From a virus (taxonomy: Duplodnaviria; Heunggongvirae; Uroviricota; Caudoviricetes; Peduoviridae), in IMG/VR virus record IMGVR_UViG_2974787780_000001: a stretch of DNA of 31,809 nt; one strand, written 5' to 3'. The position numbers and the translations under genes are program-made. How positions within the stretch are numbered: the first letter of the stretch is position 1; every line of letters begins with the position of its first letter. Below the pieces are notes generated by a model, which was not told the DNA's origin, did no database searches, and saw only the letters and a program-made list of their open reading frames with translations. Below, in pieces: positions 1 through 5,343 of this stretch.

Positions 1-2283
1 ATGGCCGTTAAAGCCTCCGGGCGTTTTGTCCCTCCGTCAGCATTTGCCGCAGGCACCGGTAAGGCGTTTACCGGTGCTTATGCATGGAACGCGCCACGCG
101 AGGCTGTCGGGCGCGAAAGACCCCTTACACGTGACGAGATGCGTCAGGTGCAAGGTGTTTTATCCACGATTAACCGCCTGCCTTACTTTTTGCGCTCGCT
201 GTTTACTTCACGCTATGACTACATCAGGCGCAATAAAAGCCCGGTGCACGGGTTTTATTTCCTCACATCCACTTTTCAGCGTCGTTTATGGCCGCGCATT
301 GAGCGTGTGAATCAGCGCCATGAAATGAACACCGACGCGTCGTTGCTGTTTCTGGCAGAGCGTGACCACTATGCGCGCCTGCCGGGAATGAATGACAAGG
401 AGCTGAAAAAGTTTGCTGCCCGTATCTCATCGCAGCTTTTCATGATGTATGAGGAACTCTGCGATGCCTGGGTGGATGCGCATGGCGAAAAAGAATCGCT
501 GTTTACGGATGAGGCGCAGGCACATCTGTATGGTCATGTTGCTGGCGCTGCACGTGCTTTCAATATTTCCTCGCTTTACTGGAAAAAATACCGTAAAGGG
601 CAGATGACCACGAGGCAGGCATATTCTGCCATTGCCCGCCTGTTTAACGATGAGTGGTGGATTAGTCAGCTTAAAGGCCAGCGTATGCGCTGGCATGAGG
701 CGTTATTGATTGCTGTCGGGGAGGTCAATAAAGACCGTTCACCTTATGCCAGTAAACATGCCATTCGTGATGTGCGTGCGCGCCGCCAGGCAAATCTGGA
801 ATTTCTTAAATCGTGTGACCTTGAAAACAGGGAAACCGGCGAGCGCATCGACCTTATCAGTAAGGTGATGGGCAGTATTTCTAATCCTGAAATTCGCCGG
901 ATGGAGCTGATGAACACCATTGCCGGTATTGAGCGTTACGCCGCCTCAGAGGGTGATGTGGGGATGTTTATCACGCTTACCGCGCCGTCAAAGTATCACC
1001 CGACACGTCAGGTTGGAAAAGGCGAAAATAAAACCGTCCAGCTTAATCACGGCTGGAATGATGAGGCATTTAATCCAAAGGATGCGCAGCGTTATCTCTG
1101 CCGTATCTGGAGCCTGATGCGCACGGCATTCAAGGATAATGATTTACAGGTCTACGGTTTGCGAGTCGTCGAGCCACACCACGACGGAACGCCGCACTGG
1201 CATATGATGCTTTTTTGTAATCCACGCCAGCGTAACCAGATTATCGAAATCATGCGTCGCTATGCGCTCAAAGAGGATGGCGACGAAAGAGGAGCCGCGC
1301 GAAACCGTTTTCAGGCAAAACACCTTAACCGGGGCGGTGCTGCGGGATATATCGCGAAATACATTTCAAAAAATATCGACGGCTATGCACTGGATGGTCA
1401 GCTCGATAACGATACCGGCAGACCGCTGAAAGATACTGCGGCGGCTGTTACCGCATGGGCGTCAACGTGGCGCATCCCGCAATTTAAAACGGTTGGCCTG
1501 CCGACAATGGGAGCTTACCGTGAGCTACGTAAATTGCCTCGCGGCGTCAGCATTGCTGATGAATTTGACGAACGCGTGGAGGCTGCACGCGCCGCCGCAG
1601 ACAGTGGCGATTTTGCGCTGTATATCAGCGCGCAGGGCGGGGCAAATGTCCCGCGCGATTGTCAGACTGTCAGGGTCGCCCGTAGCCCGTCGGATGACGT
1701 TAACGAATACGAGGAAGAAGTCGAGAGAGTGGTCGGCATTTACGCGCCGCATCTCGGCGCGCGTCATATTCATATCACCAGAACGACGGACTGGCGCATT
1801 GTGCCGAAAGTTCCGGTCGTTGAGCCTTTGACTTTAAAAAGCGGCATCGCCGCGCCTCGGAGTCCTGTCAATAACTGTGGAAAACTCACCGGTGGTGATA
1901 CTTCGTTACCGGCTCCCACACCTTCTGAGCACGCCGCAGCAGTGCTTAATCTGGTTGATGACGGTGTTATCGAATGGAGTGACCCGGAGGTCGTGAGGGC
2001 GCTCAGAGGTGCATTAAAACACGGTCGGAGAACGCCAAGTCGTCAGCAAAGAAACGGAAGCCCGTTAAAACCACATGAAATTGCACCATCGGCCAGACTG
2101 ACCCGGTCGGAAAGAATGCAAATTACCCGTATCCGCGTTGACCTTGCTCAGAACGGTATCAGGCCGCAGCGATGGGAGCTTGAGGCGCTGGCGCGTGGCG
2201 CGACCGTAAATTATGATGGGAAAAAATTCACGTATCCGGTTGTTGATGAGTGGCGGTGGTATATAGTTGATGGTAGGCGGTGA
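1..2283 (+). CDS. A: Replication initiation protein gpA (rolling-circle initiator/nickase)
   Basis: 760-aa ORF beginning at window position 1; N-terminus MAVKASGRFVPPSAF and internal YIAKYISKNIDGY tyrosine motif typical of P2 gpA-type initiators; followed by P2-like synteny. Confidence 0.9.
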   Translation: MAVKASGRFVPPSAFAAGTGKAFTGAYAWNAPREAVGRERPLTRDEMRQVQGVLSTINRLPYFLRSLFTSRYDYIRRNKSPVHGFYFLTSTFQRRLWPRIERVNQRHEMNTDASLLFLAERDHYARLPGMNDKELKKFAARISSQLFMMYEELCDAWVDAHGEKESLFTDEAQAHLYGHVAGAARAFNISSLYWKKYRKGQMTTRQAYSAIARLFNDEWWISQLKGQRMRWHEALLIAVGEVNKDRSPYASKHAIRDVRARRQANLEFLKSCDLENRETGERIDLISKVMGSISNPEIRRMELMNTIAGIERYAASEGDVGMFITLTAPSKYHPTRQVGKGENKTVQLNHGWNDEAFNPKDAQRYLCRIWSLMRTAFKDNDLQVYGLRVVEPHHDGTPHWHMMLFCNPRQRNQIIEIMRRYALKEDGDERGAARNRFQAKHLNRGGAAGYIAKYISKNIDGYALDGQLDNDTGRPLKDTAAAVTAWASTWRIPQFKTVGLPTMGAYRELRKLPRGVSIADEFDERVEAARAAADSGDFALYISAQGGANVPRDCQTVRVARSPSDDVNEYEEEVERVVGIYAPHLGARHIHITRTTDWRIVPKVPVVEPLTLKSGIAAPRSPVNNCGKLTGGDTSLPAPTPSEHAAAVLNLVDDGVIEWSDPEVVRALRGALKHGRRTPSRQQRNGSPLKPHEIAPSARLTRSERMQITRIRVDLAQNGIRPQRWELEALARGATVNYDGKKFTYPVVDEWRWYIVDGRR

Positions 2284-2459
2284 AAAGTTGAAGATGTGAA
2301 CACTGTTATTGGTAGGTAAGTAGATTTGTATGTATAAAGTAGTTGTTGTAGATATGAACAATCAGGCGTAGAATCGCCAGCCGGCTATGATGATTCCAGA
2401 TGATAATGGTTATCATTAGCTGTTGATTTATGATGTTCTTAACCACTAGAGAGACTAAT

Positions 2460-2657
2460 ATGAGCAAAAAGGTTATCACGATACAAGTAAGAGGTGGGCA
2501 CGCAGGTGCTAAGCCTGTTCGTCGTTCAAAACTTGAACAAAGTGTTAATCGTTCCCTGCGTGCTTCGTTTTCTCTGGAAGGTAATCACATTACCAACACT
2601 TCATGGTCTAAAATGTCGCAGGCTGCACGTTTTCTGACCAGAGTAGCTGTTGCTTAA
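2460..2657 (+). CDS. Small basic hypothetical protein (65 aa from ATG 2460; 75 aa if from ATG 2430)
   Basis: ORF track 2430..2657; second ATG at 2460 has purine-rich agagag upstream. Basic composition; lies just downstream of A where P2 carries orf91. Stop codon overlaps the stop of the convergent Fic gene. Confidence 0.4.
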   Translation: MSKKVITIQVRGGHAGAKPVRRSKLEQSVNRSLRASFSLEGNHITNTSWSKMSQAARFLTRVAVA

Positions 2658-3739
2658 AGCTCTTTGATTGCCCTTGAAATAAGGGCAATCAGATTTCTGT
2701 TACTGTCGTGTATTGCGCGTCTTACAGCATAATGGTACGCACGTTTATTTCGCACATCTCCATCTAGCTTTTCCATATCAAATTCATAACCCATAGTAGT
2801 TGCAACAATCTGAAGAAATAATCGTATTGAACGACCATTACCATCTTGAAAGGGGTGGATCCATGCGATTTCTGCATGGAGAGTAGCTAGTTTATGAACT
2901 AACTCTGCTTTAGAATTTATTTTGCTAAGTTCTTTTTTTGTGCAACCTCTAAGACAGGCTTTTAATGATTTTTTGACTTCATTATGTTCCATTGTTGGTC
3001 GCTCTTTATCTCCAACAACAACGGGATGGTTTCTGTATTCACCTGCCCAATCATAAATATGGCCAAAAAGAGCTTTATGGCATTCTAAGATCGTCTTTTC
3101 ATTAATTGTTTTATTTTTGTCGGAGACATAATTTATTATGAGCTGCGTACTTTTGATATATGAAATAACCATTTCGGCAAATTCAACTTGGTATTGGTAT
3201 TTTGCAAATACTAGATTTTTTGTTGCCATGTATTCATATCTTTCATTTTTTCCGTCACGTAAAAGAAAAATGTTGTCTTTTTGGTGCTTTACTTTGATTA
3301 CATGATTGCGTTGAAATGGAAAGTTTTTGTCGTGAGGCAATATGTGAAAATAAGTTTCTTTTTTTAGCTTGTCTACACCAACAATTGAACCAAAAAGAAA
3401 AAGGGCTGCTGTTGTATTAAATAAAACACATACGGAGTCGCCAAGTTGTATCTCTTCGCGACTTAGATCGCATGTTTTTTTCTTATAATTAAATAAATGG
3501 GCGATAGATGGTATGCTGTGATGATTGCGCAATGAACCTGAGCCACATATGACTTCTTTTGTCCTGCTATTCCAGTAATAATTAATGCTTCTCTTATTCT
3601 CTTGTGTTCTTTTTATATGAACCAACTTGAAGCTAAGTAGGCTTAAAGAGAATTCACCATTCTTTTTGACTATATTAACTTTTTGGTGTTTCATTTTGTT
3701 TTTTGTTAGTGTTATTGAAAAATGTTTTGAAGGTATCAT
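2654..3739 (-). CDS. Fic/Doc (Fido) domain protein with ~200-aa N-terminal domain of unknown function; candidate cargo toxin/defence effector
   Basis: 361-aa ORF; C-terminal half contains HPFQDGNGRSIR, matching the Fic active-site consensus HxFx(D/E)GNGRxxR, preceded by the Fic-typical HKALFGHIYDWAGEYR helix. Region is visibly AT-rich versus flanking phage genes. Start codon uncertain (no clear Shine-Dalgarno). Confidence 0.8.
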   Translation of the reverse strand: MIPSKHFSITLTKNKMKHQKVNIVKKNGEFSLSLLSFKLVHIKRTQENKRSINYYWNSRTKEVICGSGSLRNHHSIPSIAHLFNYKKKTCDLSREEIQLGDSVCVLFNTTAALFLFGSIVGVDKLKKETYFHILPHDKNFPFQRNHVIKVKHQKDNIFLLRDGKNERYEYMATKNLVFAKYQYQVEFAEMVISYIKSTQLIINYVSDKNKTINEKTILECHKALFGHIYDWAGEYRNHPVVVGDKERPTMEHNEVKKSLKACLRGCTKKELSKINSKAELVHKLATLHAEIAWIHPFQDGNGRSIRLFLQIVATTMGYEFDMEKLDGDVRNKRAYHYAVRRAIHDSNRNLIALISRAIKEL

Positions 3740-4121
3740 GTTTTGAGTAAGAATGCATGGTTATTATAACATGTTGGAGTTTTATCGCTAAAAAATGGAT
3801 GTAGTGAGAAGTTTGTTGCTCATGACATTTACACTTAAGATGAACAGGAGGTGCTGTTTCGGTAAGATTATCTTTGTCCCATCACATAGCACAGCTCAAT
3901 TTATCACTCATATCTTCATTTCCTTCCAGTGACAACACAAAGCTTTAAAGTCACCTTCTGTGATGCTGCTTTATGTCATTTCATAAGATCAGAGTTATGC
4001 ATGCATTAGGTGCATGGCTTTGCATGTATCAGAATTATACGTTTTCGGCGTCCGACATCACAGCTAGTTTGGATTCAGAGATGTCATGCAACCGCATTAA
4101 AACCTCCACATGAAGCGGGCG

Positions 4122-4140
4122 GGCGAGGCGGGGAAAGCAC
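4122..4140. other. cos: cos site (19-nt cohesive-end sequence, P2 type)
   Basis: Exact string GGCGAGGCGGGGAAAGCAC, which I recall as the P2 19-nt cohesive end; located next to the 3' end of Q as in P2. Confidence 0.7.
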
Positions 4141-4280
4141 TGCGCGCTGGCGGTGGTGCTGATTTTATTTTTTCAGCGTCTGAGCGCGTCGTGATGGCGT
4201 TTAGATTGTGCGCCGGGGGTTGGTGTGTCTGCGGGCTGTTTTGTGCGGTGGTGAGTGTGTGAGGGCGTGATGACGGGCTG

Positions 4281-4303
4281 TAAAAAAGCCGCCCGCAGGC
4301 GGC
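4281..4303 (-). terminator. Rho-independent terminator downstream of Q
   Basis: On the minus strand: GCCGCC-TGCG-GGCGGC hairpin followed by T6, directly after the Q stop codon. Confidence 0.5.
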
Positions 4304-4308
4304 GATGT

Positions 4309-5343
4309 TCAGCCGTTGTCAGTGTCCAGTGAGTAGTTTTTAAAGCGGATGACCTCCTGACCGAGCCAGCCGTTTATCTCGCGGATCCTGTCCTGTAACG
4401 GGATAAGCTCATTGCGGACAAAGACCTTTGCCACTTTCTCAATATCACCCAGCGACCCGACGTTCTCCGGCTTGCCGCCCATCAACTGAAAGGGGATGCG
4501 GTGCGCGTCCAGCAGGTCTGCGGCACTGGCTTTTTTGATATTAAAAAAATCGTCCTTCGTCGCCACTTCACTGAGCGGGATAATTTTAATGCCGTCGGCT
4601 TTTCCCTGTGGGGCATAGAGAAACAGGTTTTTAAAGTTGTTGCGGCCTTTTGACTTGACCATGTTTTCGCGGAGCATTTCGATATCGTTGCGATCCTGCA
4701 CGGCATCGGTGACGTACATGATGTATCCGGCATGAGCGCCGTTTTCGTAATACTTGCGGCGGAACAGCGTGGCTGATTCATTCAGCCAGGCAGAGTTAAG
4801 GGCGCTGAGATATTCCGGCAGACCGTACAGCTCCTGATTAATATCCGGCTCCAGCAGGTGAAACACGGAGCCGGGCGCGAAAGGTGTCGGCTCATGGAAG
4901 GACGGCACCCACCAGTAAACATCCTCTTCCACGCCACGGCGGGTATATTTTGCCGGTGAGGTTTCCAGTCTGATGACCTTACCGGTGGTGCTGTAACGCT
5001 TTTCCAGAAACGCATTACCGAACACCAGAAAATCCAGCACAAAGCGGCTGAAATCCTGCTGGGAAAGCCACGGATGCGGGATAAATGTCGAGGCCAGAAT
5101 ATTGCGTTTGACGTAAATCGGTGAGCTGTGATGCACGGCAGCACGCAGGCTTTTTGCCAGACCGGTAAAGCTGACCGGTGGCTCATACCATCTGCCGTTA
5201 CTGATGCACTCGACGTAATCCAGAATGTCACGGCGGTCGAGTACCGGCACCGGCTCACCAAAGGTGAATGCCTCCATTTTCGGGGCGCTGGCGGTCATTT
5301 TTTTTGCCGCAGGTTGCGGTGTTTTCCCTTTTTTCTTGCTCAT
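4309..5343 (-). CDS. Q: Portal protein gpQ
   Basis: 344-aa ORF, same length as P2 gpQ; adjacent to cos and upstream gene P on same strand; start overlaps P stop by 1 nt. Confidence 0.92.
   Translation of the reverse strand: MSKKKGKTPQPAAKKMTASAPKMEAFTFGEPVPVLDRRDILDYVECISNGRWYEPPVSFTGLAKSLRAAVHHSSPIYVKRNILASTFIPHPWLSQQDFSRFVLDFLVFGNAFLEKRYSTTGKVIRLETSPAKYTRRGVEEDVYWWVPSFHEPTPFAPGSVFHLLEPDINQELYGLPEYLSALNSAWLNESATLFRRKYYENGAHAGYIMYVTDAVQDRNDIEMLRENMVKSKGRNNFKNLFLYAPQGKADGIKIIPLSEVATKDDFFNIKKASAADLLDAHRIPFQLMGGKPENVGSLGDIEKVAKVFVRNELIPLQDRIREINGWLGQEVIRFKNYSLDTDNG

Follow-up and report, generated by a model that had tools for sequence, protein, structure and literature searches.

The genome of the P2-like phage IMGVR_UViG_2974787780_000001 (hereafter the window, the whole 31,809-bp stretch analysed here, which represents a complete, circularly permuted Peduovirus genome with its first base set at gene A) carries between gene A and cos a leftward gene for a Fic-domain protein (fic) and, converging on it from the opposite strand, a gene for a protein of 65 amino acids (aa). 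Our analysis indicates that the Fic protein is probably a toxin that is controlled in trans by this small convergent protein. Fic enzymes are inhibited by a helix with the motif (S/T)xxxE(G/N), which in class I comes from a separate antitoxin (for the classes see PMC12249575). In view of the catalytic motif of the Fic protein, the conservation of its partner, the universal convergence of the two genes and the lack of an inhibitory motif in cis, the locus is best read as a class-I-type toxin-antitoxin pair, and the two genes would then form a cassette that belongs to the accessory cargo of the gpA-cos hotspot.

The Fic protein

In the list of open reading frames (ORFs) of the window, fic extends over 361 aa (positions 2654-3739, - strand) from the first in-frame ATG at 3739. 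The conserved start of the gene is probably ATG 3694, giving a protein of 346 aa, because RefSeq uses this codon and all homologues begin there (MKHQK). The original prediction, which had been made from the DNA letters without database searches, named a Fic motif and a preceding AGEYR helix in this ORF, and both were recovered in our analysis. The product conforms to the AMP-transferase motif HxFx(D/E)GNGRxxR, and its Fic motif recurs as HPF(Q/E)DGNGRxIR in 28 of 28 homologues, in which H, F, D, G, N, G, R and R are invariant. Upstream of this motif the protein reads WAGEYR, of which W231, G233 and R236 are likewise invariant in the homologues. Pfam Fic (PF02661) covers aa 212-311 at E=6.6e-17 (62.6 bits; cutoff 24), and an AlphaFold2 model of the toxin, calculated with 28 homologues, reached a predicted local distance difference test (pLDDT) of 90 and a predicted template modelling score (pTM) of 0.85. 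In this model residues 1-146 are all β and residues 167-342 are helical (346-aa numbering), with the VbhT-like Fic fold starting near aa 172 of the 361-aa ORF. The top matches of the model in a Foldseek search of the PDB were VbhT/VbhA, BepC, EcFicT/EcFicA, Bep1/BiaA and Fic-1/AntF, and the alignment with VbhT (3zc7; E=1.9e-11, target template modelling score (TMt) 0.74-0.80) identifies the helical Fic fold. VbhT is also the best sequence match among solved structures (1.9e-12, aa 172-329). As judged from the model, the best structural matches of the toxin all lie within the class I, antitoxin-controlled branch of the Fic proteins.

As in class I, the inhibitory helix is absent from the Fic protein itself: a search for (S/T)xxxE(G/N) gave no match in the query and one non-conserved chance match among the 28 homologues, and the N-terminal extension is all β. 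According to a comparison of the coding sequences, strong purifying selection acts on each half of the protein, with a non-synonymous divergence (dN) of 0.13-0.43, a synonymous divergence (dS) that is saturated, and a dN/dS of at most 0.13 where it is computable. The scores against named NCBIfam subfamilies stayed below the respective cut-offs for VbhT (NF045983; 47.4 vs. 800 bits), the PRK10347 Fic protein (51.9 vs. 181 bits), SoFic (NF046030; 15 vs. 550 bits) and Doc (TIGR01550; 15.9 vs. 38.65 bits). Equivalog membership of VbhT, SoFic and Doc was rejected on these curated cut-offs, and by profile score the protein is a Fic enzyme outside all named NCBIfam subfamilies scored. In PHROGs the families of the two proteins, phrog_10690 and phrog_9918, are listed with their function not annotated.

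The convergent partner

The original prediction had reported neither an antitoxin ORF nor an (S/T)xxxE(G/N) helix, and had concluded that the Fic protein might be an unregulated or self-contained toxin or sensor. That conclusion was reached by looking upstream of fic for a Phd-like ORF, which is the wrong model because the protein is not of the Doc type. The partner gene lies downstream of fic on the opposite strand, and its product carries the sequence SFSLEG, which matches the inhibitory motif. By analogy with the antitoxin VbhA, S36 and E40 are predicted to be the key inhibitory residues of the partner (an alternative start codon, ATG 2430, would extend the protein to 75 aa). In 13 close homologues of the partner VNRSLRASFSLEG is invariant, and among 10 diverse partners, which reach down to 18% identity, only L25, S36, L39, E40 and G41 are invariant. 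A dN/dS of 0.10 relative to Salmonella phage FSL SP-004, and of 0.18-0.24 relative to Photorhabdus and Dickeya, indicates that the partner gene is under purifying selection. This conservation does not result from the overlap with fic, because the partner ORF lies almost wholly outside fic.

To this were added relatives of the cassette chosen as fic homologues of decreasing identity. The contexts examined comprised P2-like elements (E. coli prophages, Salmonella phage FSL SP-004, and prophages of Dickeya and Yersinia ruckeri), non-phage settings (a chromosomal site in Photorhabdus, Rep3 plasmid-like contigs and a 4.4-kb ColE1-type Klebsiella plasmid) and, further, a conjugative plasmid of Vibrio harveyi and three metagenomic lineages. 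A convergent partner ORF of 61-86 aa was found beside fic in all lineages examined (at least 11), with the motif in the form SF(S/A/E)LEG or SLYLEG, and in these relatives it is mostly annotated as hypothetical, or unannotated. The adjacent small protein with (S/T)xxxE(G/N) that characterizes class I is thus found in the 65-aa ORF. In contrast, the canonical type II operon, in which a co-transcribed antitoxin gene lies upstream of the toxin gene, is not found, the genes being convergent in the window and in every relative. The antitoxin-first operon is an organizational trait of the known examples, outside the biochemical definition of class I. In place of a toxin left to itself, as first proposed, the locus therefore presents a conserved convergent gene that would supply the inhibitory motif in trans.

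Proposed mechanism

In the mechanism that we propose, the toxin would consist of a family-specific N-terminal β-domain joined to a canonical AMP-transferase Fic domain, and the partner would bind the Fic core and supply the inhibitory helix in trans. If the pair works as VbhA/VbhT and FicA/FicT do, Ser36 and Glu40 of the partner would reach into the ATP site, with the consequence that ATP would be bound unproductively and the enzyme would be off. For the Bartonella pair it is known that E24 of VbhA blocks productive ATP binding in VbhT, and the PDB holds a derepressed E24G complex. The complex might possibly also run in reverse as a deAMPylase, and may then be bifunctional, an activity that has been reported for the Fic-1/AntF complex (PMC13327609). 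Separate promoters would drive fic and the partner towards each other, and both the antitoxin message and read-through from gene A would end at a hairpin in the 3' end of fic. Upon loss or displacement of the antitoxin, free Fic would AMPylate an essential target. A possible trigger would be infection by a phage that stops transcription of the host, and the outcome could be growth arrest with aborted infection, or the killing of cells that lose the element.

FicT toxins AMPylate GyrB and ParE, which leads to growth arrest (PMC5675462). That the protein described here acts on the same targets seems possible by this analogy, and we nonetheless regard it with some doubt, because its N-terminal domain is unique and its equivalog scores are low. 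An anti-phage role of the cassette is, in our estimation, evenly balanced.

Evidence against the proposal and alternative explanations

Several observations weigh against a class-I-type pair, or against its service in defence. The motif alone carries little weight, since 6.6% of shuffled versions of the 75-aa sequence contain (S/T)xxxE(G/N) by chance. Phmmer and profile searches gave no significant match of the partner in Pfam or the PDB, nor one to VbhA or FicA. Likewise, a profile of 10 diverse partners retrieved only 34 clusters of proteins of 61-84 aa, all of them hypothetical and none bridging to VbhA or FicA, and hhalign placed RASFSLEG of the partner in register with ASQRLEG of VbhA in an alignment that was non-significant (E=0.24, probability 0.25%). 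At the sequence level the link between the partner and the antitoxins consists of motif, conservation and synteny, and falls short of demonstrated homology. Moreover, the motif occupies residues 36-41 of the partner, following an extra N-terminal β-like segment, as compared with residues 20-25 of VbhA, and the order and orientation of the genes are unlike those of a canonical antitoxin-first operon. As regards function, the target cannot be transferred from VbhT, Fic or SoFic because the NCBIfam scores are far below the cut-offs. No anti-phage activity is on record for the family, one representative of the related PADLOC candidate family PDC-S04 gave no defence in its native host, and the presence of the cassette on small plasmids fits addiction as well as defence.

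If the small ORF were irrelevant or non-coding, the Fic protein would be an unregulated or self-contained toxin or sensor, with its N-terminal domain gating the activity. Regulation in cis is conceivable in that this family-unique domain packs confidently on the Fic domain (pTM 0.85), and the small ORF is without a homologue in Pfam or the PDB. However, the purifying selection on this ORF, its presence beside fic in at least 11 lineages and unrelated genomic contexts, the restriction of its only invariant block to a known Fic-inhibitory motif, and the lack of a conserved inhibitory motif in cis across the 28 Fic homologues make this explanation highly improbable. Hardly more probable is that Fic serves the life cycle of the phage itself, in host takeover or lysogenic conversion, and that the partner is a timer or a deAMPylation switch and not an antitoxin. 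The partner gene lies directly downstream of the early gene A with no intervening terminator, so that its level could follow the lytic programme, and Glu-containing Fic complexes can act as deAMPylases (Fic-1/AntF; SoFic on EF-Tu). The same cassette, however, is found in the non-phage settings of the Photorhabdus chromosome and of plasmids, and about 99% of P2-like prophages lack it, which argues against a phage-specific function.

A weightier alternative accepts the same toxin-antitoxin pair and holds that it was selected for addiction or stabilization of the element, through post-segregational killing or by keeping the prophage from being lost, rather than for defence. We consider this explanation rather unlikely and yet well worth attention, since the cassette makes up a large share of the 4.4-kb ColE1-type plasmid and is carried by other plasmids as well, classical FicTA are toxin-antitoxin modules enriched on mobile elements (PMC5675462), and one PDC-S04 representative showed no defence. 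It has to be set against the position of the cassette in P2-like phages, where it occupies the slot of old, tin and many validated defence systems, against one metagenomic copy that adjoins a methylase/AAA_15/AAA_21 gene typical of defence islands, and against the fact that addiction and defence can coexist. Of the two roles, the hotspot and the defence-island-like neighbourhood favour defence, whereas the tiny plasmids and the housekeeping chromosomal site fit a selfish toxin-antitoxin cassette equally well.

A class-I-type pair could, finally, owe its convergent layout to the discrimination of self from non-self. With the partner at the end of the early operon, the lytic programme of the phage itself would raise the antitoxin and keep Fic silent, while a heterologous phage that halts host and prophage transcription would cause the antitoxin to decay and Fic to be released. 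The SH3-like N-terminal domain would then sense a phage or host protein, or direct the enzyme to a substrate other than GyrB/ParE, and the embedded hairpin would shield fic from antisense transcription. This would amount to abortive infection by a Fic enzyme under a novel kind of regulation, perhaps with a target that is also new, and as a whole we judge it unlikely.

Comparison with known systems

The closest known systems in sequence and fold of the Fic domain are VbhT/VbhA of Bartonella schoenbuchensis and FicT/FicA (EcFicT/YhfG, YeFicTA, PaFicTA, Fic-1/AntF). Like VbhT and FicT, the protein in the window has the canonical HxFx(D/E)GNGRxxR and no inhibitory helix in cis, and like VbhA its partner is a separate protein of about 60 aa with S-x-x-L-E-G (ASQRLEG in VbhA, RASFSLEG here). 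In contrast to VbhA/VbhT and FicA/FicT, which form antitoxin-first operons, the genes described here are convergent with a tail-to-tail overlap, and unlike VbhA and FicA the partner has no detectable homology past the motif, which follows an extra N-terminal segment. The toxins differ in addition in their accessory domains, since this toxin has a β-domain of about 150 aa N-terminal to the Fic core, whereas VbhT has a C-terminal BID domain and FicT has none.

SoFic (Millman et al., 2022; EcSofic/AS1, PMC12249575) is a class II, single-gene anti-phage system built on a Fic AMPylase, and it resembles the cassette in that a small downstream gene, AS1 (47 aa), neutralizes its toxicity (PMC12249575). 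The PADLOC SoFic hidden Markov model matches the Fic protein of the window with 1.8e-13; however, SoFic has an inhibitory helix in cis and a C-terminal domain, and this protein has neither, which sets it apart from SoFic. The best match in defence databases is the PADLOC candidate PDC-S04 (2.8e-33, aa 172-359), whose profiles represent Fic-only proteins of about 205 aa and cover neither the N-terminal domain nor the partner. PDC-S04 is an unverified, predicted family, of which one member was tested in its native host and was negative. Doc/Phd of phage P1 likewise combines a phage-borne toxin of the Fido superfamily with a small protein antitoxin. In contrast to the present protein with its GNGR, Doc is a kinase with the motif HxFx(D/N)(A/G)NKR and another mechanism of inhibition, and the Doc features are absent here. 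With regard to its location the cassette is similar to P2 old/tin and other gpA-gpQ cargo, all of which share the slot between gene A and cos, are AT-rich and vary between near-identical phages, while the proteins of that cargo and their biochemistry are unrelated to those of the Fic pair. Like fic here, P2 old is transcribed leftward.

The original prediction went too far in calling a phage-borne Fic effector of defence unusual, given that SoFic is an established system, that PDC-S04 matches with 2.8e-33, and that the pair itself appears in a published list of P2 hotspot arrangements (Table S5 of Rousset et al., 2022). The listing of the gene pair at the P2 hotspot, the PDC-S04 candidate and SoFic defence were all known before, and the finding is not categorically new. 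What is new is that the partner is recognized as a probable antitoxin, together with two features undescribed for FicTA, namely the universally convergent, overlapping layout with a likely terminator inside the coding sequence of fic, and an N-terminal β-domain that is private to this family. Anti-phage systems have been proven to reside in the gpA-cos slot of P2-like phages, and among Fic enzymes only the class II SoFic is validated in defence; to this reservoir the cassette would add a class I, antitoxin-controlled Fic module. At stake is the use of FicTA-type gyrase poisons, or of a new AMPylation target, in inter-phage warfare, and with a size of about 1.3 kb the cassette is small and easily cloned. 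Furthermore, phrog_9918 and hypothetical proteins of the WP_016236400 type are probably Fic antitoxins, and a search for antitoxins that is limited to upstream ORFs on the same strand misses such partners.

Hairpin and candidate regulatory elements

A hairpin within the 3' end of fic begins 6 nucleotides (nt) past the stop codon of the partner and has a stem of 12-14 bp, followed by ATTTCTGTT. It is kept in five lineages (the window, FSL SP-004, Dickeya, Y. ruckeri and Photorhabdus), and in the alignment of these five sequences 7 of 12 pairs show compensatory changes. Of the cells of this alignment 98% are paired, compared with 22-48% after a shift of the partner columns by 1-3 positions. At several pairs the partner-sense strand has G·U where the fic-sense strand would have A·C. 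Because of this covariation, and because the G·U pairs form on the partner-sense strand only, the hairpin is likely an RNA element that acts on the rightward transcript, most simply as its intrinsic terminator; it would then likely terminate both the antitoxin transcript and read-through from gene A. The same palindrome encodes a quasi-palindromic peptide (LIALISRAI) at the C-terminus of Fic. Conservation of the hairpin solely through this peptide was considered and, on a sample of only five lineages, rejected, since the stem is maintained both by synonymous changes that occur in pairs (in Dickeya, GCC/AGG to GCT/AGA) and by the strand-specific G·U pairs. Since the paired synonymous substitutions preserve both peptide and stem, this one stretch appears to serve two functions.

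A terminator scan found no terminator on the + strand from the stop codon of gene A to the partner, and therefore read-through from the early operon into the partner gene is possible. In the Y. ruckeri prophage (locus L014, 6848-7968), an insertion sequence element with an rve transposase has landed between gene A and the antitoxin-like ORF and parts the partner from the early operon, and the partner ORF and the hairpin are still intact.

A scan with promoter consensus sequences returned no convincing promoter for fic or for the partner. By eye, weak candidates can be proposed for both (Table 1). Elements similar to the extended -10 of the fic candidate, TGTTATATT and TGTTATGGT, occur upstream of fic in FSL SP-004 and in plasmid contigs, and the antitoxin candidate has 8 of 12 matches, which is below the threshold of the scan. 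Between the latter and the partner gene lies a Fur-box-like palindrome with 17 of 19 consensus matches, whereas the next best site in the window has 14 of 19 and none of 100 shuffles reached 17 of 19. This site is identical in the E. coli N21 prophage, retains 14 of 19 matches in FSL SP-004 and is absent in remoter relatives. It could couple the expression of the antitoxin to iron status, or could instead be an unrelated palindromic operator, TGATAA-N3-TTATCA.

The N-terminal β-domain

The original prediction had described an unassigned N-terminal domain of about 200 aa. A family-specific domain does indeed exist, and its size is about 150-156 aa. In a HMMER scan of 1.84 billion representative proteins it was found in only 10 clusters, all of which are Fic fusions or fragments, and as far as sequence searches can tell the domain is private to this Fic family. 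It probably represents a target- or partner-binding module. The possibility that it is a shuffled sensor module was also considered; the search of other architectures, which gave Fic fusions only, yielded no evidence for it. In the Fic protein of Photorhabdus tasmaniensis (324 aa; P0020/P0021) about 25-28 residues of the β-domain are missing (segment YFHILP...IKVK, at columns about 141-168 of the homologue alignment), and this natural deletion variant could reveal whether the N-terminal domain is dispensable.

Genomic context

The original prediction placed the leftward gene in an island of AT-rich DNA that lies between A and cos, and the composition of the window agrees with this, with a guanine-cytosine (GC) content of 31-41% over about positions 2250-4050 as compared with 50-60% in the flanks (Table 1). 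The right boundary of the island is marked by cos, for which an exact match was found to what we take to be the P2 consensus 19-mer.

Table 1. Positions of the cassette, its elements and the flanking landmarks in the window.
Feature	Position	Strand	Details and basis
fic toxin gene, conserved start (probable)	2654-3694	-	346 aa; RefSeq annotation, homologue alignment
Catalytic Fic motif HPFQDGNGRSIR	2822-2857	-	aa 295-306 of the 361-aa ORF; regular-expression search
N-terminal all-β domain	3227-3694	-	aa 1-156 of the 346-aa protein; includes an SH3/Tudor/KOW-like barrel
Antitoxin-like gene	2460-2657	+	65 aa; convergent to fic, 4-nt tail-to-tail stop overlap; RefSeq WP_016236400
SFSLEG, matching the inhibitory-helix motif (S/T)xxxE(G/N)	2565-2582	+	residues 36-41 of the partner; regular-expression search
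Hairpin and T-rich tract	2663-2693	+	inside the last 13 codons of fic; terminator scan
Candidate fic promoter, extended -10 TGTTATAAT	3763-3771	-	-35-like TTAGCG at 3786-3791; by eye
Weak candidate antitoxin promoter, TTGTAG-17 nt-TAGAAT	2346-2374	+	by eye; hexamers kept in FSL SP-004
Fur-box-like palindrome	2402-2420		GCTAATGATAACCATTATC on the - strand; 40 nt upstream of the antitoxin start codon
Gene A	1-2283		Pfam Phage_GPA, 1e-122; left flank of the island
Variable AT-rich cargo island	2284-4077		from the gene A stop codon to conserved cos-proximal DNA; composition profile
cos, P2-type 19-mer GGCGAGGCGGGGAAAGCAC	4122-4140	+	exact match; right boundary landmark of the island
Portal gene Q	4309-5343	-	right flank

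The stretch from 2284 to 4308 is 100% identical to Yersinia phage VB-YPM-18 (ON146440) and to vB_YpM_476A/B, and 99% identical to Salmonella phage STYP1, phage R18C and 11 E. coli prophages, and other P2-like phages and prophages share only nt 4078-4308 of this region. The 230 nt proximal to cos were matched in 2153 of 5426 complete E. coli genomes. Since only 11 of these 2153 flank-matching genomes carry the whole island, the region is not part of the phage backbone, and the fic cassette is accessory cargo of the gpA-cos/gpQ (old/tin) hotspot, the position to which it had been assigned in the original prediction. In line with this, the gpA-gpQ locus has been described as the defence hotspot of P2, with 1,650 arrangements in 18,150 loci (Rousset et al., 2022). 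Among the P2 hotspot arrangements in Table S5 of that study, 'Fic + hypothetical' is given with the accessions WP_021522894 and WP_016236400, which is this exact pair; RefSeq uses the same two accessions for the copy in E. coli N21. In that study Fic is confined to a reference list and to Tables S1 and S5, which give accessions; it is absent from the table of evaluated systems, and the Fic arrangement is not discussed in the main text (Rousset et al., 2022). It follows from Tables S1 and S5 that Fic enzymes are recurrent cargo of these hotspots, in more than one form.

In the metagenomic contig L012 (1844-5153) the cassette adjoins an 846-aa gene with N6_Mtase and SMC_N/AAA_15/AAA_21/AAA_23 domains and a 261-aa gene, a neighbourhood that is defence-island-like. 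Within the window, the positions 3740-4077, between the start of fic in the ORF list and the conserved cos-proximal segment, comprise about 340 nt of AT-rich non-coding DNA, in which the ORFs are of 45-46 aa only and without support; in the equivalent space Salmonella phage FSL SP-004 has two extra genes (gp39 and gp40). An Rfam scan of positions 2200-4400 gave zero matches. Several E. coli chromosome records have the same first base as the window and match it at record positions 2284-4309, which suggests that these are assemblies whose origin was set inside this prophage.

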